Positions 5,922-63,507 of a stretch of 64,000 nucleotides of DNA are shown here, piece by piece. The position numbers and the translations under genes were made by a program. Numbering within the stretch: the stretch's first letter is position 1; each line of letters opens with the position of its first letter. The notes under the pieces were generated by a model, which saw nothing but the letters and a program-made list of their open reading frames with translations, was not told where the DNA came from and searched no databases. The DNA is from Escherichia coli (GTDB lineage Bacteria > Pseudomonadota > Gammaproteobacteria > Enterobacterales > Enterobacteriaceae), in assembly GCF_041886205.1 (NCBI RefSeq), contig NZ_CP169029.1; one strand, given 5' to 3'.

Positions 5922-7430
5922 TTACTGCTGCGGAATAGCGGGTACGACCGGAACATTTAATGCCGGCATTGCAAACATACCAACGAAATCTTCCAGTGGC
6001 ATTTTCTGCCCGTTTAACGTTATCTGACCGTTAGTATATTGCAGGCTGGTGGTGATGGTATTGTCCTGCAAGGTGGTCAGACGGAACATCTGCCCCATTG
6101 CTGATGCACCTTCAACTTGCTGTTTCGCCAGTTTTTTCGCTTGATCTTCCTGATAACCTTCCAGCTTCGCTACCTGAGTCATAAACTCAGTTGCCATATC
6201 CACCGGAATGGTCAGTTTCGCATCCAGAGATTTAACCGAACGATCTACTTCCTGCGCCAGCGTTTGCGGCGCTTCTTTAGTCGTTGCCGGATCTTTCAGG
6301 AACAGCGACAGATTCAGGGCACTTTCACCCTGACTGTTTTTCCAGCTTAGCGGCGCGATAGTAATCACCGGATCGCCTTTCAGCATCAGCGGCAGGGCGC
6401 TAAAGAAGGCTTCCGTCACTTTCTCCTGATAAAGTTCGGGGTTGTTGGCAATTTCTGGCTGTGCCAGCAGCGCCTGAGTTTGCGCGTTATATTGCTGGCT
6501 AAACTGATGCCAGGCTTCACCATCAATCTGGCCGACTTTTAAAGTCAGCTTGCCGCTGCCCAGATCCTGATTCTGTACCTTCAGGCTGTTTAGCGAGTAA
6601 TCCAGTTGGCTATTGATCGTTTTACCGTCATTGACCAGATCCGATTTACCGCTGATCTCCATGCCTTCCAGCAGTGCCAGTTCTTTGCCTTCCACTGAAA
6701 TGGTCATTTTTTCCAGTGACAGTTTTTGATTTCCTACACGCTCACCAAAACTTGCCAGCGTGCTGGAACCGTCGGTTTTCAGATTATTAAAGGTCAACTG
6801 CACTTTCTGGTTGTATTCGTTAACTGCGTCTATCCGACCACTTTGCGCCTCCCCGGAAAGGGAGATGGCTTTGCCGTCTCTGTCAGCATTTAACTGGAAC
6901 TCGCCGCCGCTAAAGGCGACTTTTTCATCCTTTTGCTCGTAATTCAGTGGCTTGAGCGAAATATCGGAACTGGAATCACCGCTGTAACCAATGCGCGAGT
7001 TAATCTCAAAAGGCGTTTCACCTTTTGCCATATCAAACAGTGGTTTACTTACTTCGTTATTAACCAGCGTGGTTTGAATTGATGCCATCGACGGGATCAG
7101 GTTCAGTTTTTTAAGCTGGGCAAGCGGGAAGGGACCATGATCAACCGATTCGTTGAAGATGACGCTCTGACCGCTTTTAATCCACGGATTTTCTTTCCCG
7201 GCAATGGGTTTCACCAACAGTTGCAACTGGCTGCTGAATACGCCGCGATGATAGTTTTGATAACTCACTTCCAGGTTGGATTCAGGAGCTGTCAGTTTGA
7301 GTTGCGCGTTCGCCTGCGCGACCATGTCTTCGAGATGGGTTTCAATCTTCTTGCCTGTATACCATGCGCCGCCTGTCCAGACTACGCCTAGCGCAACAAT
7401 GACGCCTACCGCTACCAGCGATTTATTCAT
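5922..7430 (-). CDS. ydgA: DUF945-family periplasmic/membrane-anchored protein
   Basis: 502-aa ORF with N-terminal hydrophobic anchor; K-12 synteny between uidC and manA. Confidence 0.8.
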   Translation of the reverse strand: MNKSLVAVGVIVALGVVWTGGAWYTGKKIETHLEDMVAQANAQLKLTAPESNLEVSYQNYHRGVFSSQLQLLVKPIAGKENPWIKSGQSVIFNESVDHGPFPLAQLKKLNLIPSMASIQTTLVNNEVSKPLFDMAKGETPFEINSRIGYSGDSSSDISLKPLNYEQKDEKVAFSGGEFQLNADRDGKAISLSGEAQSGRIDAVNEYNQKVQLTFNNLKTDGSSTLASFGERVGNQKLSLEKMTISVEGKELALLEGMEISGKSDLVNDGKTINSQLDYSLNSLKVQNQDLGSGKLTLKVGQIDGEAWHQFSQQYNAQTQALLAQPEIANNPELYQEKVTEAFFSALPLMLKGDPVITIAPLSWKNSQGESALNLSLFLKDPATTKEAPQTLAQEVDRSVKSLDAKLTIPVDMATEFMTQVAKLEGYQEDQAKKLAKQQVEGASAMGQMFRLTTLQDNTITTSLQYTNGQITLNGQKMPLEDFVGMFAMPALNVPVVPAIPQQ

Positions 7431-44386: not shown

Positions 44387-44443
44387 TACTAATAACGGCG
44401 AGTAAGTAGTACGCATCTTACCTCTTTTTTAGAGATAACCATT

Positions 44444-44572
44444 ATGACAATAGAAAAACACGAAAGAAGCACTAAGGATTTGGTGAAAGCAGCAGTATCG
44501 GGATGGCTGGGCACTGCGCTTGAATTTATGGATTTCAAGAGTCATACGTGTCAACTATTTGATAAATATTAA
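44444..44572 (+). pseudogene. ydfJ: probable 5' fragment (42 codons) of a ydfJ-like MFS transporter gene interrupted by the prophage
   Basis: Short ORF MTIEKHERSTKDLVKAAVSGWLGTALEFMDF... ending abruptly next to the integrase gene; in K-12 the Qin prophage splits ydfJ beside rspB (recalled, not aligned). Confidence 0.45.
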
Positions 44573-44573
44573 A

Positions 44574-45869
44574 TTAATTTTTCATTGCTTCGTTATGGGG
44601 CATGGTTGGGGCAAACTCGCTTAACTGTGTATTTAACAAAGCTACCTGTGCATTATTGTTTTCAGACATCCATTTTCCGTATACCTGAAATACCATTTGC
44701 GCATCTGCATGGCCCATCTGGTTTGCTATAAATGCCGGGTTAGCACCAGCTGTCAGCGACCAGCAGGCATAAGTATGTCTCGACTGATATGATTTTCGAT
44801 GGCGGAGTCCGGCACGTTTTATCGCTGCGTCCCACATCTGCCTTATTGAGTCAACGGTAAAATGGTCACCATAATTTTTTACTCTCGCTGACACTTCAGG
44901 TTGAAAAACAAAGGTGCATTTATGTTTTTCTGTTCTGCCATACTCTCTGAGGTGAACATCAATGATATGCTCTTTGCTCAGTCTCGTTAATGTCATCTGA
45001 CTCCGGAGAGCGTCGATTGCTGGCTTAATAAGATGAATGACCCGATTGGTTCCCGCCTGTGTTTTTGGGACCGTGAAACGGTCTTTTGCTAAATTTCTCC
45101 TGATCATCATTGTTCCATTTTTCAGATCTATGTCCTCCCATCCAAGTGCACACAGCTCACCAGGGCGAACGCCAGTATAAACAGAAACACACCATAAATT
45201 TTTGGCTTGCTGATTTCTGCACGCATCGATAAGACGGATGAATTCCTCCCGCGAAAGAGGATCCGGAATGGTTCTTGATTCCTTTAATGGCGAGATCCCC
45301 TTAAACGGGTTATCTGCCAGGTAACCGTTATCAACACCAAACTGGAACACGGCGTTAAGATTTGTCATGTAATTATTTACAGTTACAGCCGATCTCCCTG
45401 GTTGTGTAACAATATAGTTACTTTTGGGGATCTGGTATCCAGTCAGTAGCTCTTTACGAACCTCCAGTAATTTTTCTTTATTAATCGATGAGGCAAGATT
45501 TTTTTCACCGATTATGCTCAGGATATTTTTGATGACGGCACGGTATGTGTTGAGTGATGTTTTGGCGACTTCAGTTTCTTTCAGTGCCAGAAATTTTTCA
45601 GCCAGTTCTTTTATGGTTAAATCTTGTCGGGCCTCACCAAATTTTTCCAGATTGCGTGAGGAGGGAAACTGTTTTGCATAGTCGAAAACACCAGTTTTTA
45701 TTGCGTAACAAACAGAGGAGCGTAGTTCACCTGCAACGCGCCTGTTTTTTGCTGTGTCAGGAACCCCCAGATTTTCCCTGACTCTTACGCCTTTATAAAC
45801 AAACCAGATACGTAATTTCCCTCCATGGTTTTCCACGCCTGTCGGATATTTCATTTCAACTTCTCTCAT
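44574..45869 (-). CDS. phage integrase, tyrosine recombinase family
   Basis: 431-aa ORF with C-terminal catalytic motifs (…RHTYACW…HADAQMVFQVYGKW…); adjacent to the presumed attL; true start may be the internal MKYPTG. Confidence 0.85.
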   Translation of the reverse strand: MREVEMKYPTGVENHGGKLRIWFVYKGVRVRENLGVPDTAKNRRVAGELRSSVCYAIKTGVFDYAKQFPSSRNLEKFGEARQDLTIKELAEKFLALKETEVAKTSLNTYRAVIKNILSIIGEKNLASSINKEKLLEVRKELLTGYQIPKSNYIVTQPGRSAVTVNNYMTNLNAVFQFGVDNGYLADNPFKGISPLKESRTIPDPLSREEFIRLIDACRNQQAKNLWCVSVYTGVRPGELCALGWEDIDLKNGTMMIRRNLAKDRFTVPKTQAGTNRVIHLIKPAIDALRSQMTLTRLSKEHIIDVHLREYGRTEKHKCTFVFQPEVSARVKNYGDHFTVDSIRQMWDAAIKRAGLRHRKSYQSRHTYACWSLTAGANPAFIANQMGHADAQMVFQVYGKWMSENNNAQVALLNTQLSEFAPTMPHNEAMKN

Positions 45870-45888
45870 TAGTTAGTGTGGCTTTTAG

Positions 45889-46140
45889 TCAAGTAAGATG
45901 ACGTCTTGGTCTTGCTGATGCCTGGCGCTCAATCCAGCGATCAATTTCTTCCAGGTTGTAAAAGCATGGACTGTTATCCCATGGCATACCGTCATGAGCG
46001 ACATGCTTATATTCCCTTCCTTCCATAAACGATTTTTCCCGGGCCTTTTTTAACGTACCTTTTTTTATTCCTTTCAGCGCAATTAACTGCTCTTCGGATA
46101 CCCATTTGCCGGGAGAGACAATCATGATTACTTCGCTCAT
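45889..46140 (-). CDS. putative excisionase / small DNA-binding protein
   Basis: 83-aa ORF immediately upstream of int in the same orientation. Confidence 0.55.
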   Translation of the reverse strand: MSEVIMIVSPGKWVSEEQLIALKGIKKGTLKKAREKSFMEGREYKHVAHDGMPWDNSPCFYNLEEIDRWIERQASARPRRHLT

Positions 46141-46212
46141 CGATTTCTTTATCTCTTACATCAGACGAGCGCCGGTTGCAGAATACCAGTCACAACCGGC
46201 GACAGTTGAACA

Positions 46213-47935
46213 TTAAGAATCAGCCTGACTCGGGATCAGTTTTTGCCAGATAGCTGAAACGTATTTTGCCTGGTAACGGGCGTCATCAAGTGCATTATGG
46301 CGCTCACCTTCGAATGGAATAGCCGTTCTGGCATCGAAGTCTATGGCTTTCCCCAGCTCAACGATTGTGCGTACATCGCGATCGTTGTAGTAACGCCACG
46401 GGCAGGGGATCCCCTGCCGTTCGTATGAACGGCGCAAAATCGTGTTGTCGAAGTTGGCTCCATTTCCCCAGACATGAACAAAAAATTCACCGGAGTTTTC
46501 GTCGATAAATTCCCGCAATTGTAACAGTGCATCATCTAACGGGATTTCATCGGTCATAATGGCAGATTGCGCTTCGCGTGATTGTTTAAGCCACCATTTA
46601 ATGGTGTCCCGATCAATGACTCCGCCAGCAGTTTCCAGATCGATAGTCTTACTAAATTCCGGTCCCATATCTCCGGTTTGCGGATCGAAAAATATTGCAC
46701 CTATTGAGATAATCGGGGCATCGGGATTTTTTCCCATGGTTTCAAGGTCGATCATCAGATGAATCCCCGCTCTGCTGGTGGATGTGAGATTATGATGACC
46801 GTTTGCCTTAATTAAGGGATCTGACGCCTCGCCAGTTTCACTATCGCTGGCATGATGCTGATTGCCGCCAGTGTTCTCCTTGTGCTGATGCGCAGTGCCT
46901 TCTATTTCCTCCGGATCATTTTCCTGAACTTCAGGCTGATTCTCTCCATCGAATATTTCCTGGTATGTTGCGTCACCCATCACCGCACCACAATCAGGGC
47001 AGTTGCCGCCACCGCTCTGACCGCAGGCGGTGCAGATCTTTTCCGGTTCCTGTTGCACTACTGGTTCAGGTTGTTTCGTTTCTGGCTCGTTTTGTTGCAT
47101 ATTTGGGCTGTTTTGTTCCGCTTTCTGGTCGTTCTGTTCCGTTTCTTGCTGGTTCTGGTTCACAGAATCGCGGGTCTGGATCCCCTTAATCCATTTCGGA
47201 TCATTCGGGTCGCTAATCCCTTCAACAAATTCACCACGTGATACTGCAAGCAGTTCATCGGCGTCAGGCTGGCTGATATTGGCTGCCTGCATAATTTTGT
47301 TTACTTCGTCAGCGGTAACTTTTACTGACCCTGGTTGTGCGGTCGTGTCAGATGCACCAGTATTTTGTTGTGAACCTGAGTATGTACCGTTTTTGCGGGC
47401 GAAATATTCTTCTTTCGTGATTTCAGTAGCCCCAGCAGACAGCGCCTTATCCAGACCAGAAAGTTTATTTGCGCGACCGTATTTTTCGCCATCCTTGTCG
47501 GTGAAGAGGAAGTAGAACGGCCCCTCACGTTCTACAGATGGTTCGACTTCCACTTTGCATTCGGTTTTTTCGTTGTCTGGAATTGCCGTTTCCACTGCAT
47601 CAGTTTCTGGTACTGGCGACGAGAGAGTATCAGTTGCGCTCTGATTTGTTCCTTCATCTTCAAACACGCCCTTTGTAGTCAGGTATTCAGTAATGTATTT
47701 GTTCAGTGCCACAGGGTCTTTGTGAATGTCGATCGGACGTTCACGGACAAGGCCAAAAATAGTCTGGCGGTCGTAGCGAAGGGCATCAGGCTGTTTGCGC
47801 ATTGATGCCGAGATACGCTTCCAGTCTTCGCGGTCGTTGTCGATAACTTCATTTTTTGCCCAGCGATGGATGCTGCCGTCAATGTTTCCGGCATCCACAT
47901 CACCAGGCCAGAGAGCGTAGGCCAGTTCGTCATCC
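46213..47935 (-). pseudogene. 3' portion of a phage exonuclease gene (DnaQ-like DEDDh 3'-5' exonuclease domain) interrupted by IS629
   Basis: Open frame continues upstream from the called ORF right up to the IS629 left end; C-terminus has exonuclease motifs (…MIDLETMG…, …HNALDDA…). Confidence 0.7.
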
Positions 47936-47989
47936 TGAACCGCCCCGGGAATCCTGGAGACTAAACTTCCTGAGAAAGAGGTAAACAGG

Positions 47990-48316
47990 ATGACTAAAAA
48001 TACTCGTTTTTCCCCCGAAGTCCGTCAACGGGCAGTCCGTATGGTTCTGGAAAGTCAGAGCGAATATGACTCACAATGGGCGACAATTTGTTCCATTGCT
48101 CCAAAGATTGGCTGTACGCCGGAGACTCTGCGTGTCTGGGTTCGCCAGCATGAGCGGGATACCGGGGGCGGTGATGGAGGGCTCACCACCGCTGAACGTC
48201 AGCGTCTGAAAGAGCTGGAACGTGAAAATCGTGAACTGCGCCGCAGTAACGATATCCTTCGCCAGGCTTCCGCTTATTTTGCGAAGGCGGAGTTCGACCG
48301 CCTCTGGAAAAAATGA
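47990..48316 (+). CDS. IS629 transposase OrfA (HTH)
   Basis: 108-aa [22 protein letters not shown]...; ends in an A-run slippery site. Confidence 0.85.
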
Positions 48317-49203
48317 TGCCACTGCTGGATAAGCTGCGTGAGCAGTACGGGGTCGGACCGCTATGCAGCGAACTGCATATTGCCCCGTCAACGTATTACC
48401 ACTGTCAGCAACAGCGACATCATCCGGATAAACGCAGTGCCCGTGCGCAGCGCGATGACTGGCTGAAGAAAGAGATACAGCGCGTATACGATGAAAATCA
48501 CAAGGTATACGGTGTGCGTAAAGTCTGGCGTCAGTTGTTACGGGAAGGTATCAGAGTGGCCAGATGCACTGTGGCACGTCTCATGGCGGTTATGGGACTT
48601 GCCGGTGTTCTCCGGGGTAAAAAGGTCCGTACGACCATCAGCCGGAAAGCCGTTGCCGCAGGCGACCGCGTAAACCGTCAGTTCGTGGCAGAACGACCTG
48701 ACCAGCTGTGGGTGGCTGATTTTACTTACGTCAGCACATGGCGGGGCTTCGTCTATGTGGCGTTCATCATTGATGTGTTTGCCGGATACATCGTGGGGTG
48801 GCGGGTCTCATCGTCCATGGAAACGACATTCGTGCTGGATGCACTGGAGCAGGCGTTATGGGCCCGTCGACCGTCCGGCACGGTCCATCACAGTGATAAA
48901 GGTTCTCAGTATGTATCGCTGGCCTACACACAGCGGCTTAAGGAAGCCGGATTACTGGCATCAACAGGAAGTACAGGCGACTCGTATGACAACGCGATGG
49001 CGGAGAGCATCAATGGTCTTTACAAAGCGGAGGTAATACACCGTAAGAGCTGGAAAAACCGTGCAGAAGTGGAACTGGCCACACTCACGTGGGTGGACTG
49101 GTATAACAATCGACGATTGCTGGAAAGGCTGGGCCATACTCCTCCGGCAGAAGCAGAAAAAGCTTATTATGCTTCCATCGGAAACGATGATCTGGCAGCC
49201 TGA
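48313..49203 (+). CDS. IS629 transposase OrfB (DDE integrase domain), -1 frame relative to OrfA
   Basis: 296-aa ORF with DDE motif region; overlaps orfA in the -1 frame as in IS3-family elements. Confidence 0.85.
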
Positions 49204-49245
49204 GTTCACAGATAAAACACTCTCCAGGAAACCCGGGGCGGTTCA

Positions 49246-49760
49246 TCCAGTGTTTTCCATGTCTGCTTGTATTCGCGATGAATGGCAGCAATGACCGGGT
49301 TGATTTTTCCTGTTGAATTTTCAGTGTGCTGTTGATTGGCTCTGGCACGGGCGAGATCAACAACAGACGTGTATTTTCCGGCTTCCTTGCGTTCACCTTC
49401 GCGACGTTTTTTCCAGATGCGCATCTCTGCCTGAATTTCGGGCCATTTGGCACCAGGCTTACATTTATGCTTAACCCACCCGATGGCATGCAGCTTAAGC
49501 TCCGGATACATAGCGTTAACTTCTGGCATTTTCATCAACGCTTCAACGATATGGCCGTCGAATGTTGCCATGTCTTCCTGCAACAATTCCTGTGCGCTAA
49601 TCACCATATCAACAGTGATGTTTTCACATGTGTCGAACTTAACCATGACAGCGTTCTGTACTTCAGGGGCTAGGTTGTCAAAAGTGACGTTCATCGGATC
49701 GGATTCAGTCTCGACCGGGACAAAGGAAGCAGACGCCTCATCCCAGCGGTTTTCCTGCAT
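49246..49760 (-). pseudogene. 5' portion of the IS629-interrupted phage exonuclease gene
   Basis: ORF beginning MQENRWDEASASF... runs into the IS629 right end; its last ~12 called codons are IS-derived. Confidence 0.6.
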
Positions 49761-50017
49761 ATATTCAGCATCCCAGGAATCGAGGGCAGGGCGGGGTATA
49801 CCGGGTTTATCCTCGCAAACAAGAAATTTATAAGCGCAGTCCTGAGCAGCCGGATAATGTTCCAGGAATTGCCAGTGAAATTTTGCGCGGGCGCGACGTT
49901 CATCACCGGCTTCAATGGCAGTGGCTACAGTGAGACGAACTTCGCCGTGCGCTTTCGTGTTGTGTGCCTGCTTTTAACCACGTCAGGCGAGGTGGTATCC
50001 TTAAAATCACCACAGTT

Positions 50018-50593
50018 TTAAGGATTCATTAAGCAATGTCGCAACCACCAATAAATCCGCTTAAGAACATGAAAATTGATTACTGGTATAAAGCGCTTAC
50101 AGTTGTTGGCGCTGCGTTGTTTGTCTTTAATGGAACGTCTTTTTTTGACAGATATCCCGTTGTTCCATTGGATTTTTTGTCCTCCGGCATCTTTTTTATT
50201 GGTTTGGGGGAGTGGATTAATCACCCTCTCAAAGTGAGATTTATTGGTCCTGGAGTTTGGACTCGTGGATATAATCGTTCTTAGTGCGCACTCGGTATCA
50301 TCTTCGACATACTTGGTTGTTTCCTGATTGTTACAGGAGTCGTCAAGTTCTTCTGATGTAAAACCGCAAATGGGGCACGTAACGGGAATTTTGAAAAGCG
50401 TTTCTCCGGGTTCCAGAACAAAATTTTCTGCGGTCTGATTTTGCTTCTCATATTTGTGCTCCGCGTCATTGTGAGAGCACATTCTTATTCTGAGTGCCTG
50501 TTTAAACTCACTGAAGCTGAGAGCTTCTTCGCCTTCGGCAAGACCTTCGAAGTATTCTTCGTAAGCCTTTTCCATGATTGTGTCGAAATCCAT
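50018..50593 (-). CDS. hypothetical prophage early-region protein with CxxC zinc-ribbon-like motif; 3' extent uncertain
   Basis: ATG at 50593 preceded by RBS AGGTGAG; N-terminal ~100 aa protein-like (…VTCPICGFTSEE…), distal part low-complexity and overlapping a plus-strand ORF. Confidence 0.4.
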   Translation of the reverse strand: MDFDTIMEKAYEEYFEGLAEGEEALSFSEFKQALRIRMCSHNDAEHKYEKQNQTAENFVLEPGETLFKIPVTCPICGFTSEELDDSCNNQETTKYVEDDTECALRTIISTSPNSRTNKSHFERVINPLPQTNKKDAGGQKIQWNNGISVKKRRSIKDKQRSANNCKRFIPVINFHVLKRIYWWLRHCLMNP

Positions 50594-50594
50594 A

Positions 50595-50831
50595 TCACTC
50601 ACCTGAGTTTCTTTCCAGCCAGCGACGGGCACCATTTTCGGTTTTAAACGTTTTGCTTTTGGTATACGTCATCGCGGTGAACGTACCGTCCTGGTTGGGG
50701 AACACGCCACATACCGGAGATTCGCTGTTGCCAAGATCGATAGTATCCATGCTGACCTCATTTCCCCTTAACGCCGGGGTAGCGGAACAAAAACCTGCTG
50801 CATAGTTATTAAAGTTGAACCCTGCCGTCAT
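50595..50831 (-). CDS. hypothetical small prophage protein
   Basis: 78-aa ORF whose stop lies 1 nt before the next ATG (translationally coupled arrangement). Confidence 0.4.
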   Translation of the reverse strand: MTAGFNFNNYAAGFCSATPALRGNEVSMDTIDLGNSESPVCGVFPNQDGTFTAMTYTKSKTFKTENGARRWLERNSGE

Positions 50832-51047
50832 GTTCTTACGCCTCGGGCTGGCTACTTAACCCCTGACCACTGCCTGGTAACTCGAAGTATTGCCCTGCAT
50901 TCTGTGGGGCGGGGTGGGTGGCAGGCATATAATGTACTTTGCGTTCATTGTTGTAAAGTACTTTTAGTACATTTTGTGTGTAAAAAAATGAGATGGGATA
51001 AAGTGAAGCACAAACCCGGAGGAAGGCGCTACCGGATTTATGCTGGT

Positions 51048-51467
51048 TTAAGAGGCTTTTTGTTTTTTCTTTCGTGCTAACTCTTCGTAAATTGCATTGT
51101 ACTTCTGTTTTTTCTCTTCAAGAGTTTTTAAAAGTTCATCTGTCTCACTGTCAGGGAGCTCGTCCAGAAGGTCAATGATGATTTTTTGTCTTGGATTTAA
51201 CTCCTGATAGAAACGTACCTGTCCACTTTCTTCTGTATCCTCTCCCAAAAGATAGGTTGGTGTTGTTCCTATTAGTGTTGCTAATTCCCTTAATTTCTCC
51301 CGGCGAGGAATTGTTTCGCCATTAAACCATTTGCTAACCGCTTTTGGTGTTAATTTCATTCGACGGGCAATTTCTGCCTGCCTTCCATGTTGTTCATAAC
51401 CAGCGTTTTCACAGGCTAGCGCAAGCCTACTGGCGAACTCTTTACGCGCTTTATCTTCATGAACCAT
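51048..51467 (-). CDS. prophage repressor, XRE-family HTH (DicA/cI-like)
   Basis: 139-aa ORF with HTH (…MKLTPKAVSKWFNGETIP…); divergent from a Cro-like gene. Confidence 0.75.
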   Translation of the reverse strand: MVHEDKARKEFASRLALACENAGYEQHGRQAEIARRMKLTPKAVSKWFNGETIPRREKLRELATLIGTTPTYLLGEDTEESGQVRFYQELNPRQKIIIDLLDELPDSETDELLKTLEEKKQKYNAIYEELARKKKQKAS

Positions 51468-51546
51468 AAGTTCAATGATATTCGCTCTTGAATGTACTGT
51501 CAGTTCTGTTATAGCATGTACTCAAAGTTCACACTGTGAGGGTGAT

Positions 51547-51801
51547 ATGAACCAGAAAACACTTGAAGATGTAATCAAAACTGTTCGCGTTGCTGTTGTG
51601 GCCGACGTTTGTGGTGTCAGCCAAAGAGCAATCTATAAATGGATGGATAACGGAAAATTGCCTCGCACAGAATATACCGGCGAAACAAATTACGCTGAAA
51701 AAATCGCTCTTGCATCAAACGGATTATTTTCTGCCGATGCAATTTTAACTATTGGCAGGAATAAAACTACTACGAAAAAGCTGATGGGAGTTGATTCATG
51801 A
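51547..51801 (+). CDS. Cro/YdaS-like HTH protein
   Basis: ATG at 51547 with RBS GAGGGTGA; HTH (…VADVCGVSQRAIYKWMDNGKLP…); ATGA overlap with next gene. Confidence 0.65.
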   Translation: MNQKTLEDVIKTVRVAVVADVCGVSQRAIYKWMDNGKLPRTEYTGETNYAEKIALASNGLFSADAILTIGRNKTTTKKLMGVDS

Positions 51802-58985: not shown

Positions 58986-59297
58986 ATGACTCAAGACTAT
59001 GAACTGGTTGTGAAAGGAGTCCGTAATTTTGAGAATAAAGTTACGGTAACTGTAGCCTTACAGGACAAAGAACGCTTTGACGGTGAAATTTTTGGCCTGG
59101 ATGTCGCCATGGACCGTGTTGAAGGAGCTGCGCTGGAGTTTTATGAGGCAGCAGCCAGAATGAGCGTCCGGCAAGTCTTCCTGGAAGTAGCAGAAAAATT
59201 GTCAGAAAAAGTTGAGTCTTATCTGCAGCATCAGTACTCCTTTAAGATTGAAAATCCTGACAATAAGCACGAGCGTCCTCATCATAAATATCTATGA
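58986..59297 (+). CDS. YdfR-like hypothetical protein located between holin and endolysin
   Basis: 103-aa ORF; same position and size as ydfR in K-12 Qin (recalled). Confidence 0.55.
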   Translation: MTQDYELVVKGVRNFENKVTVTVALQDKERFDGEIFGLDVAMDRVEGAALEFYEAAARMSVRQVFLEVAEKLSEKVESYLQHQYSFKIENPDNKHERPHHKYL

Positions 59298-59823
59298 ACA
59301 CAAAAATCAGATACGGCCTGTCGGCTGCCGTTCTGGCGCTGATTGGTGCTGGCGCATCTGCTCCTCAGATACTTGACCAGTTTCTGGACGAAAAAGAAGG
59401 TAACCACACAATGGCATACCGCGATGGTTCTGGCATATGGACCATCTGTCGGGGTGCCACAGTGGTGGATGGAAAAAACGTTTTTCCCAATATGAAACTG
59501 TCGAAGGAAAAATGCGACCAGGTCAACGCCATTGAGCGTGATAAGGCGCTGGCATGGGTGGAGCGCAATATAAAAGTTCCACTGACCGAGCCACAGAAAG
59601 CCGGTATCGCGTCATTCTGTCCCTATAACATTGGCCCTGGTAAGTGTTTTCCGTCGACGTTTTATAAGCGGCTTAATGCCGGTGATCGTAAAGGCGCATG
59701 CGAGGCGATTCGCTGGTGGATAAAGGACGGTGGACGTGATTGCCGCATTCGTTCAAATAATTGTTACGGTCAGGTTATTCGTCGTGACCAGGAGAGTGCA
59801 TTAACCTGCTGGGGGATAGAACA

Positions 59824-59827
<4 letters not shown>
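59294..59827 (+). CDS. phage endolysin, GH24 lysozyme with N-terminal signal-anchor-release (SAR) segment
   Basis: 177-aa ORF; hydrophobic Gly/Ala-rich N-terminus (…LSAAVLALIGAGASA…) followed by lysozyme domain. Confidence 0.85.
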
Positions 59828-60320
<493 letters not shown>

Positions 60321-60683
60321 GGTAATATTAAATCGGAACATTTACATCGCGGAATGTAAAATTTAAATAAAAAGGACTCTTCCATGAGCCAAAATTCCTG
60401 AAATCTTAAGGGTAAGATAAAAGGTCTTAATCAGAATGACACGTTATTATTAATAAATAAAGCTATTCTTTCATTGCTGTGTTTTTCTTTACAAAAGTAA
60501 TCCTTGCTATGGGTGGTTAATCATGCGTTAATGGTGTTCTGGTTTGTTACAAATTTATCTGAAGCAGTCATTGTTATAATTTTATTATTTGTACCTCTTG
60601 AGATTTCCTTGTTGGTTTTTCTCTCTGATATTTTTTTTCGGACCATTCTGCCCAAGGGCTAATTTCTTCAAAAGGTAATAATT

Positions 60684-60896
60684 ATGTCTAACAAAATGAC
60701 TGGTTTAGTGAAATGGTTTAACCCTGAAAAAGGTTTTGGTTTCATCACGCCGAAAGATGGCAGCAAAGATGTGTTTGTCCATTTCTCAGCAATTCAGAGC
60801 AACGATTTCAAAACATTAACTGAGAATCAGGAAGTTGAATTTGGTATTGAGAACGGACCTAAAGGTCCTGCCGCTGTTCATGTAGTGGCGCTTTGA
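60684..60896 (+). CDS. cspI: cold-shock protein (CspA family), prophage-encoded
   Basis: 70-aa [41 protein letters not shown]...; preceded by a long AT-rich leader. Confidence 0.8.
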
Positions 60897-61167
60897 GGTA
60901 GACAATATTACAAACCATATTCACTTTAGATGCCCGTGTTGTCATGGTTCCCAGTATAGAACATCATCTTTTGATGTTTCTGACATGAATCCTTTCGGGG
61001 CAAAATGTATCTTTTGTAAATCAATGATGATTACATTTGATAATATTTCACAATACTTAAATGCCAGCCGTCTGTCGTTGGATTTAAAAAAGTGAAAATG
61101 AAGGCTCCTTCGGGAGTTTTTTTGCTTGGTATCTATTCGATGGATACTCACATACTACGGTAACATC

Positions 61168-62907: not shown

Positions 62908-63507
62908 ATGCGTAAACTTTATGCCGCCATTTTGTCCGCAGCCATTTGTCTGGCCGTATCCGGTGCGCCTGCATGGGCATCTGAACATCAGTCCACGCTG
63001 AGCGCGGGGTATCTTCATGCCTCGACGAACGTTCCCGGCAGCGATGATCTTAACGGGATTAACGTGAAATACCGTTATGAGTTTACGGACACACTGGGGC
63101 TGGTGACGTCATTCAGCTATGCAGGAGACAAGAATCGCCAGCTTACCCGTTACAGCGATACCCGCTGGCATGAAGATTCCGTGCGTAACCGCTGGTTCAG
63201 CGTGATGGTGGGGCCGTCTGTGCGCGTGAATGAATGGTTCAGCGCGTATGCGATGGCGGGTGTGGCTTACAGCCGTGTGTCGACTTTCTCCGGGGATTAT
63301 CTCCGCGTAACTGACAACAAGGGGAAAACGCACGACGTGCTGACCGGAAGTGATGACGGTCGCCACAGCAACACGTCTCTGGCGTGGGGAGCTGGCGTGC
63401 AGTTTAACCCGACCGAATCCGTGGCCATTGATATTGCTTATGAAGGCTCCGGCAGTGGCGACTGGCGCACTGACGGTTTCATCGTGGGTGTCGGTTATAA
63501 GTTCTGA
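62908..63507 (+). CDS. lom: Lom/Ail/OmpX-family outer membrane protein
   Basis: 199-aa ORF with signal peptide, beta-barrel features and C-terminal …GVGYKF; RBS GAGAGG. Confidence 0.85.

Follow-up and report, generated by a model that had tools for sequence, protein, structure and literature searches.

The window analysed here is a 64-kb stretch of Escherichia coli DNA; over 24.5 kb its backbone shows 100% identity with two strains of the species. It carries a defective Qin-like prophage remnant located in ydfJ and adjoining rspB; the prophage origin given in the initial annotation holds, with the qualification that the prophage was already a defective remnant. At the prophage end adjoining rspB, a tyrosine integrase gene (int, 44574–45869, minus strand) was assigned from its open reading frame (ORF), the annotation of relatives and matches to Pfam Arm-DNA-bind_2 and Phage_integrase. 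An excisionase gene (xis, 45889–46140, minus strand) was assigned from its ORF and from the excisionase-family (DUF1233) annotation of relatives. It lies directly downstream of a ydfE-type exonuclease gene carried in two minus-strand pieces, a 3′ fragment at 46213–47935 and a 5′ fragment at 49246–49930, with a complete insertion sequence of 1,310 bp at 47936–49245 between them. The window shares the order int, xis, exonuclease with relatives L001, L002, L004 and L005, and its copy sits, as is typical of ydfE-type genes, where the early-left operon ends and xis and int follow immediately.

The insertion sequence belongs to the IS629 group (IS3 family) and lies on the plus strand, its ends (TGAACCGCCCCGGG...CCCGGGGCGGTTCA) and length having been read directly. 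The left terminal inverted repeat (IRL, 47936–47960, plus strand) was located by its match to the reverse complement of the right end and pairs with the right repeat (IRR, 49221–49245, plus strand), with identity at all 14 outermost positions and at 23 of the first 25. Two open frames were found on the plus strand, orfA (47990–48316, 108 aa) and, in the −1 frame relative to it, orfB (48313–49203, 296 aa). Together they span 1,214 nt (47990–49203), the length of the ‘programmed frameshift’ transposase CDS that PGAP annotates in two pieces in strain 550. The transposase is read in the direction opposite to the split exonuclease gene. An ALIL pseudoknot, the IS3-family frameshift stimulator, was detected at 48271–48387 on the plus strand (Rfam RF01497, 120.2 bits against a gathering score of 50, model positions 1–117 of 117).

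The element occurs once in the 64-kb window, and full-length, 100% identical copies were found at unrelated loci in other E. coli genomes; it is presumably still active. A partial copy labelled ‘IS629 family’ by PGAP was 100% identical over positions 1–795. The reference length of IS629 in ISfinder is 1,310 bp, and membership of a named isoform conventionally asks for at least 95% nucleotide identity in that database. With its length of 1,310 bp, imperfect inverted repeats starting TGAAC, −1 frameshifted orfA/orfB with the ALIL pseudoknot, 3-bp target duplication and prophage landing site, the element resembles the IS629/IS1203/IS3411 isoform group of O157:H7 and Shigella. It differs from the IS1203 isoform of O157:H7 in being about 96% identical at the nucleotide level to the copies annotated under that name, not identical. 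Published target-site duplications of IS629 are 3–4 bp long, and in O157:H7 62% of IS629 copies lie within prophages (PMC3271280).

The element is flanked by direct repeats of TCC at 47933–47935 and 49246–49248, the latter corresponding to nt 750–752 of the intact 2,472-nt CDS (codons 250/251); these coordinates, like those of the element itself, agree in full with the initial annotation. In uninterrupted relatives such as L001 the site reads GTCATCC|AGTGTTT, with one TCC and the same sequence base for base. A natural IS-free allele was found in L008 (SRR14867109), in which window position 49243 is joined straight to 47935 and the sequence outside the element is 99.98–100% identical to the window. 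Because both the uninterrupted relatives and L008 display the exact empty site, the TCC duplication is not a chance 3-mer. The left junction of the element was also present in the independent assembly L007 (GCA_012344975.2) and the right junction in the independent assemblies L009 (SRR10958933) and L012 (SRR29303307), so neither is an assembly artefact. A search of 5,426 complete E. coli genomes found neither the insertion site of the window nor the IS-occupied allele; the allele was recovered from at least three other public assemblies, and the site may serve as a lineage marker. A Shigella origin of the window, suggested by this absence and by the abundance of IS629 in Shigella, was considered and rejected on the strength of the 24.5 kb identical to two E. 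coli strains. Since the IS-free sister allele is 99.98–100% identical and 100% identical copies of the element are found elsewhere in other strains, the insertion is judged recent.

The 3′ fragment is colinear with WP_001774503.1 and covers codons ~251–823 and the stop. It encodes the central region that resembles RecE, a zinc-ribbon-like stretch rich in Cys, and the DEDDh exonuclease domain, and has no start of its own. Of the 823-codon ancestral gene, the 5′ fragment, placed by frame and alignment, retains codons 24 to ~251; its first in-frame ATG, at 49760, is the ancestral Met80, and its frame enters the insertion sequence and stops after 13 IS codons. In-silico removal of the element and one TCC gave 2,235 nt, or 744 codons with a single terminal stop, and the natural product of L008 (744 aa) was 100% identical to the reconstructed protein. 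The 745-codon single frame of the initial annotation was restored in this way, but that figure starts at the first ATG following a stop and falls short of the ancestral gene, which has 823 codons, of which codons 1–23 and the start were lost in a deletion. Upstream of 49760 the restored frame stays open to the deletion junction at 49926–49930, and it aligns without gaps to residues 24–823 of the intact 823-aa protein, from which it differs by two substitutions.

An exact-product look-up returned recorded products for the 561-aa and 205-aa ORFs and none for the 184-aa ORF that reads from the exonuclease gene into the element. A promoter and terminator scan of 45800–51600 gave counts no higher than the shuffle expectation, and no promoter or terminator created by the element is claimed. 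The PHROG 2082 profile (823 positions) was matched from 1 to 822 by an intact relative; the window copy, after excision, covers residues 24–823 only and has no start before Met80. It is a damaged member of PHROG 2082, a pseudogene, and annotation should show the two ORFs, and likewise the 744-aa gene called in relatives that lack the element, as pieces of a ydfE-type gene of 823 codons. PHROGs also has families confined to the first 257 residues or to the last 263, which can stem from fragments of split genes of this kind, and one family, phrog_20376, models a shorter form starting at residue 295.

Alignment to L001 located a second lesion upstream, a deletion of 930 bp (L001 5478–6407) whose junction at 49926–49930 is a 5-bp microhomology, TACAG. 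The deletion took the start codon and codons 1–23 of the exonuclease gene together with ydfD, dicB and the DicF sRNA, which in L001 lies at 6188–6239, inside the deleted interval; an Rfam scan of the window found no DicF. The junction lies 680 bp from the IS629-group element and has no IS end at it; none of the 5,426 complete genomes searched contains it, but it is present in L008–L012. Because L008 has the deletion without the insertion sequence, the deletion is the older of the two events.

The locus is thus best read, with high confidence, as a ydfE-type gene that received an IS629-group insertion after an earlier 930-bp deletion at a microhomology. In this history, the microhomology deletion took away the start, codons 1–23, ydfD, dicB and DicF, and the 1,310-bp element later transposed in at codon 250/251 and duplicated TCC. 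The outcome is a 5′ piece stopping 13 codons into the element and a startless 3′ piece with the DEDDh domain. That the two halves are instead separate neighbouring genes, which happen to join in frame when the element is removed, is effectively refuted: intact relatives have a single 2,472-nt CDS (823 codons) across the site, the PHROG 2082 match runs end to end and the alignment is free of gaps over the junction. Two adjacent genes with a stop at the junction, which the initial annotation had named as the arrangement that would speak against a single gene, were looked for in the relatives and not found, and its single-gene reading is borne out. No support for separate genes was found; partial PHROG families do exist, but such families can arise from fragments, and the probability left to this reading is negligible. 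It is also extremely improbable that the locus arose by a larger IS-mediated rearrangement, whether an adjacent deletion or a recombination between two IS copies, in place of a simple insertion. The deletion does lie only 680 bp away and IS629-family copies occur in the dicB–ydfB interval of other strains, but the 3-bp duplication is perfect and the empty site is restored exactly, the deletion junction is a microhomology lacking an IS end, and rearrangement is refuted because the IS-free L008 carries the same deletion.

A more serious alternative concerns function. The initial annotation had the insertion as a relatively recent inactivation; recent it is, but since the deletion preceded it the element was probably not the inactivating event and probably entered a gene crippled beforehand. 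On the alternative reading a Met80-started protein of 744 aa is functional in the IS-free allele and IS629 inactivated a working exonuclease gene. Both alleles keep the 744-codon frame fully open; in L008 it is unbroken, identical and called as a gene, and it departs from the intact 823-aa relative at no more than two residues. The catalytic DEDDh domain is at the far C-terminus (residues 642–813), and the shorter phrog_20376 form, with its start at residue 295, may be counted on the same side. An N-terminally shortened protein could accordingly have been made before the element arrived. Against this, the native start, the ribosome-binding region and 23 codons were lost, a further 56 in-frame codons without a start codon precede Met80, and the ATG at 49760 is not preceded at 5–10 nt by an AGGAGG-like Shine–Dalgarno sequence, the closest GGGA ending ~12 nt upstream; the high identity may mean only that both lesions are young. 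We consider it rather unlikely that a working gene was lost to IS629. Under the preferred order, deletion and then insertion, we infer that the gene was non-functional or poorly expressed before the element arrived, and the element would now also keep transcripts that start at the early-left (dicB-operon) promoter from reading through to xis and int.

The C-terminal DnaQ-like exonuclease domain of the initial annotation was confirmed and could be assigned to the DEDDh type. In the intact 823-aa protein of L001, which differs from the window frame at two residues, residues 642–813 matched Pfam PF16473 (Rv2179c-like DEDDh 3′–5′ exonucleases) with E = 1.5e-66 over model positions 2–177 of 177; RNase_T (PF00929) gave E = 6e-4. 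The window translation contains the motifs IDLET, NGANFD and HNALDDA, which fit the pattern D-x-E, D, H-x4-D and which, going by the DEDDh fold in general, would hold the catalytic residues. Alignment with T4 DexA (PDB 8KEL) was distant (E = 3e-7) and covered DexA residues 4–162 including the D-x-E, with IDLET and NGANFD aligned to the corresponding DexA motifs, and ended short of DexA D169. The catalytic domain is therefore named here as a predicted DEDDh 3′–5′ exonuclease and a distant homologue of T4 DexA. Its likeness to DexA and PF16473 concerns the C-terminal ~175 residues, which match the whole PF16473 model, whereas DexA (227 aa) and its E. coli homologue EcD each consist of one small domain and the ydfE-type protein has ~640 additional N-terminal residues. 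A defence-system assignment was considered and dropped, PADLOC having returned only a weak generic match to its DEDDh model (E = 1.4e-5). A literature search on Rv2179c in phage returned nothing relevant.

The recombination function proposed in the initial annotation was not upheld. Residues 245–626 are homologous to positions 270–603 of the 877-position RecE profile NCBIfam NF007259, at 273.4 bits, far below its curated whole-protein cut-off of 1,269 bits for RecE/exonuclease VIII; the same region is also matched by phrog_607 and phrog_412. The similarity to RecE of the Rac prophage, with which the ydfE-type protein shares this central region and the PGAP name ‘exonuclease’, is limited to the non-catalytic central part of RecE, and the C-terminal third of the RecE model, where the RecE nuclease domain lies (about residues 606–866), is uncovered. 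Unlike RecE, the protein gave no RecE-type nuclease domain in Pfam or PDB searches, and no recT/bet-type annealase gene was annotated beside the intact relatives examined, in which the neighbours are xis and ydfD/dicB. The catalytic domain is not that of a RecE or lambda-Exo recombination nuclease.

Membership of the DexA-like ‘HREX’ anti-phage exonucleases asks for a DexA-type fold with conserved 5hmC-recognition residues, loss of the tetramer-forming Asp and protection against T4; EcD, the E. coli DexA homologue that was tested, lacks the Asp at DexA D90 (PMC12153337). Unlike EcD, the ydfE-type protein appears, in the distant alignment, to conserve this Asp. By analogy, the 823-aa protein, with a RecE-like scaffold and a DexA-like DEDDh nuclease, might be an HREX-like prophage nuclease that excludes phages with modified DNA, its repeated loss reflecting selection against a costly or toxic gene and not neutral decay; we regard this as very unlikely. 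A literature search on the ydfE exonuclease of Qin returned nothing, and no functional study of the gene family was found. The IS629 split is ordinary prophage decay, and only the gene family as such might reward experimental work. The significance of the locus lies mainly in correct annotation and in a clean case of stepwise decay of a cryptic prophage, with the before and after alleles both in public data: the toxic dicB/DicF/ydfD module and the exonuclease 5′ end were deleted, and IS629 was then inserted.

Other ydfE-type genes have been damaged by insertion sequences in different ways. K-12 ydfE (b1577, cryptic prophage Qin) is the same gene in the same position, dicB–ydfD–ydfE–(xis)–int adjoining rspB, and in K-12 it is followed by the intQ pseudogene, no xis being annotated. 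Over residues 1–256 it is 96% identical to the 823-aa protein, and here too an insertion sequence truncates the gene. The K-12 gene keeps its 5′ end and has lost everything past codon 256 to an IS2 remnant, whereas the window copy lacks codons 1–23, has IS629 at codon 250/251 and keeps the C-terminal exonuclease domain. In O157:H7 (e.g. strain E32511) the same gene, at 95–99% protein identity, is split into two partial pseudogenes by an IS629-family element, IS1203. This insertion is an independent event; unlike that of the window, it lies at codon ~361 with the element facing the other way, and dicB and ydfD have been retained. With an IS1 interruption in strain PKF8, the gene has been hit by an insertion sequence in at least four of the strains examined (IS629 in the window, IS1203 in O157:H7, IS2 in K-12 and IS1 in PKF8). 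The ydfE-type gene is itself very common in E. coli prophages: with a 2.6-kb query spanning the exonuclease gene, about 3,490 of the 5,426 complete E. coli genomes matched at least 80% of the query.

The IS629-group element was located at 47936-49245, with its transposase ORFs on the plus strand, and measured exactly 1,310 bp, both ends being read directly from the window sequence (left end TGAACCGCCCCGGGAATCC, right end GGAAACCCGGGGCGGTTCA). Its terminal inverted repeats match at 14/14 positions and then at 23 of the first 25, and the trinucleotide TCC is found directly outside both ends (47933-47935 and 49246-49248). A flanking 3-mer is expected by chance in 1 of 64 cases and is weak evidence on its own. 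The uninterrupted site of strain 1190 (L001, the intact-gene reference) reads ...GTCATCC|AGTGTTTTCC..., with a single TCC, and is the same at every base as the window without the IS and one TCC. The same prophage, 99.98-100% identical to the window sequence, is present without the IS in the 65-kb Logan contig SRR14867109 (L008), where 47935 directly adjoins window position 49243. At least three further public assemblies carry the IS-occupied allele: GCA_012344975.2 was 100% identical across 8,212 bp, its contig terminating within the IS, and the contigs of SRR10958933 and SRR29303307 stop 29-30 bp inside the IS right end. With empty sites in L001 and L008 and occupied junctions in these independent assemblies, both a chance repeat and an assembly artefact were therefore ruled out, and the coordinates and TCC repeats of the initial annotation hold. 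The event was a plain transposition: the IS lies antisense to the gene and duplicated 3 bp, corresponding to nt 750-752 in the ancestral CDS.

Excision of the IS and one TCC in silico restored a frame of 2,235 nt (744 codons plus a stop, the sole stop being terminal), and the 744-aa gene called in L008 is 100% identical to this reconstruction. Rather than two adjacent genes with a stop at the junction, intact relatives (strains 1190, 550 and O103 ML775) annotate a single 2,472-nt CDS spanning the site, encoding 823 aa and named 'exonuclease'; the intact protein matches positions 1 to 822 of the 823-position PHROG 2082 profile. The proposed 745-codon gene was thus right as to frame and too short as to length, because the start of the window gene has been deleted. 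The excised frame aligns with residues 24-823 of the intact protein without gaps and with two substitutions; ancestral Met80 corresponds to the ATG at 49760, and the roughly 57 in-frame codons 5' of this ATG retain homology with the intact gene but contain no start codon. As interrupted, the 5' fragment continues for 13 codons into the IS before a stop (...TLD-EPPRVSWRVFYL*), and the 3' fragment carries the nuclease domain without a native start.

The missing start was traced to a deletion junction at 49926-49930, where homology to L001 jumps at a 5-bp microhomology, TACAG. Relative to L001, 930 bp are missing (L001 5478-6407), comprising the start and first 23 codons of the exonuclease gene, ydfD, dicB and the DicF sRNA, the last matched by Rfam at L001 6188-6239 and not found by Rfam in the window. 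ydfD encodes a lysis protein and dicB a cell-division inhibitor, and the deletion looks like the loss of a toxic module from a Qin-like prophage. The junction recurs in five or more public assemblies (draft or Logan), with continuous sequence across it in L009 (SRR10958933), L012 (SRR29303307) and two further assemblies (L010 and L011). Since L008 has the deletion and lacks the IS, the deletion came first and IS629 was acquired later in a sub-lineage. The initial annotation had taken the IS as the inactivating event; the insertion stands, but the older deletion had already removed the native start. Because of this loss, and because inspection of the sequence found no good Shine-Dalgarno ahead of Met80, the gene was probably dead or weakly expressed before the IS arrived. 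The same two points weigh against a functional Met80 form to which the IS dealt the killing blow, which we consider unlikely. The IS separates the early-left promoter region from xis-int and so may also lower read-through expression of these excision genes; a consensus scan for promoters and terminators gave nothing above chance.

Within the element, which is present once in the window, orfA (47990-48316, plus strand, 108 aa) and orfB (48313-49203, plus strand, 296 aa, in the -1 frame relative to orfA) are both open, and the ALIL pseudoknot, the frameshift stimulator of the IS3 family, was matched by Rfam at full length (48271-48387; 120 bits, gathering score 50). The element retains its two ORFs, its termini and its frameshift signal undamaged and can therefore probably still transpose. 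Other E. coli strains carry full-length copies of 100% identity at loci unrelated to this one (e.g. ydhS of strain AREA_504), one partial match of 100% identity is annotated 'IS629 family', and O157:H7 copies annotated IS1203 are approximately 96% identical. These observations are consistent with published data, in which IS629 sub-types diverge by 4-5%, duplications are 3-4 bp and 62% of copies are located in prophages (PMC3271280). The group is very common, with matches of at least 80% length in 3,042 of 5,426 genomes. IS629-family copies were also observed a few hundred bases off, in the dicB-ydfB interval of the same prophage type, in strain 550 (L002 7259-8569, equivalent to window ~50433-50438; 99.9% identity to the window IS) and in O103 ML775 (L005 5632-6845).

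The 'DnaQ-like exonuclease domain' was correctly named: residues 642-813 match the whole model of Pfam PF16473 (Rv2179c-like 3'-5' exoribonuclease, DEDDh; E=1.5e-66), with a weak RNase_T match, and the window copy holds the motifs IDLET, NGANFD and HNALDDA. Precomputed Pfam matches of the 744-aa product include PF27432 (YdfE_C). A recombination function was not borne out. The similarity to RecE is confined to residues 245-626, which match the middle of the profile (NF007259 positions 270-603 of 877; 273 bits, cut-off 1,269) and not the RecE nuclease domain at about residues 606-866; Pfam and PDB searches detected no RecE-type nuclease domain, and the intact relatives examined have no annotated recT/bet-type gene next to this one. 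The sole homologue with a solved structure was phage T4 DexA (8KEL; E=3e-7 with the isolated domain). In a 2025 study (PMC12153337), a small DexA homologue from E. coli, EcD, was shown to degrade 5hmC-DNA and to confer protection against T4. Its homology to the ydfE-type protein is distant, its architecture differs and it lacks an Asp that appears conserved in the latter; the activity is a lead for the family, not a finding.

The gene is widespread, with matches covering at least 80% of a 2.6-kb query that spans it in 3,490 of 5,426 genomes, and has been interrupted independently elsewhere. The K-12 pseudogene ydfE (b1577; L006 4079-4999) is the same gene: it is 96% identical to residues 1-256 and breaks off at codon 256, where an IS2E remnant cuts it, 5-6 codons from the window's IS629 site; O157:H7 E32511 (L004 1914-5698) has an independent IS1203 at codon ~361, and IS1A interrupts the orthologue in strain PKF8. 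IS629-group insertions seem to accumulate in the early-left region of this prophage type. Searched against 5,426 complete E. coli genomes from RefSeq, the probes for the IS junction and the deletion junction each gave no record with coverage of 80% or more, and neither junction was found. The allele is limited to one lineage and not new in kind, every component (IS629 group, PHROG 2082 gene family, type of event) being of a known kind; the remaining interest is the function, predicted from sequence, of a very common ydfE-type exonuclease.

The host element is a Qin-like lambdoid prophage in ydfJ beside rspB. It runs from int (44574-45869) and xis (45889-46140) through the exonuclease remnant and the deletion to ydfA-like ORFs, followed by the repressor (51048-51467), a CII-like/YdaT gene, a replication initiator, a Ren-like gene, an HNH endonuclease, the endolysin (59294-59827), a cspA-type thermoregulator (cold-shock) leader (60538-60923; Rfam RF01766, 113 bits) and lom (62908-63507). 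Endolysin and lom are only ~3 kb apart, all three last features falling inside ~4 kb, and most morphogenesis genes (head, tail) are therefore gone. The prophage is a defective remnant, as is Qin of K-12, and has a cold-shock gene embedded in it, as Qin has cspB/cspI. Over its 24.5 kb of chromosomal backbone the window matches strains 6EVA and wlxctx60 at 100.0% identity. In 6EVA (L003 21068-22435; the prophage end corresponds to window 44400-44574) ydfJ is intact beside rspB, without a prophage, and the attachment site is therefore empty. Near-identical backbones thus differ in whether they carry a degraded prophage, so that it was either lost precisely and recently or the region was replaced by recombination. 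Overlapping the ydfA/ydfB region, a 205-aa minus-strand ORF (50018-50635) with Cys-rich stretches gave no Pfam match; it is predicted by gene callers in several assemblies and absent from the PGAP annotation of L001. A hydrophobic 82-aa ORF lies on the opposite, plus strand at 50036-50284.
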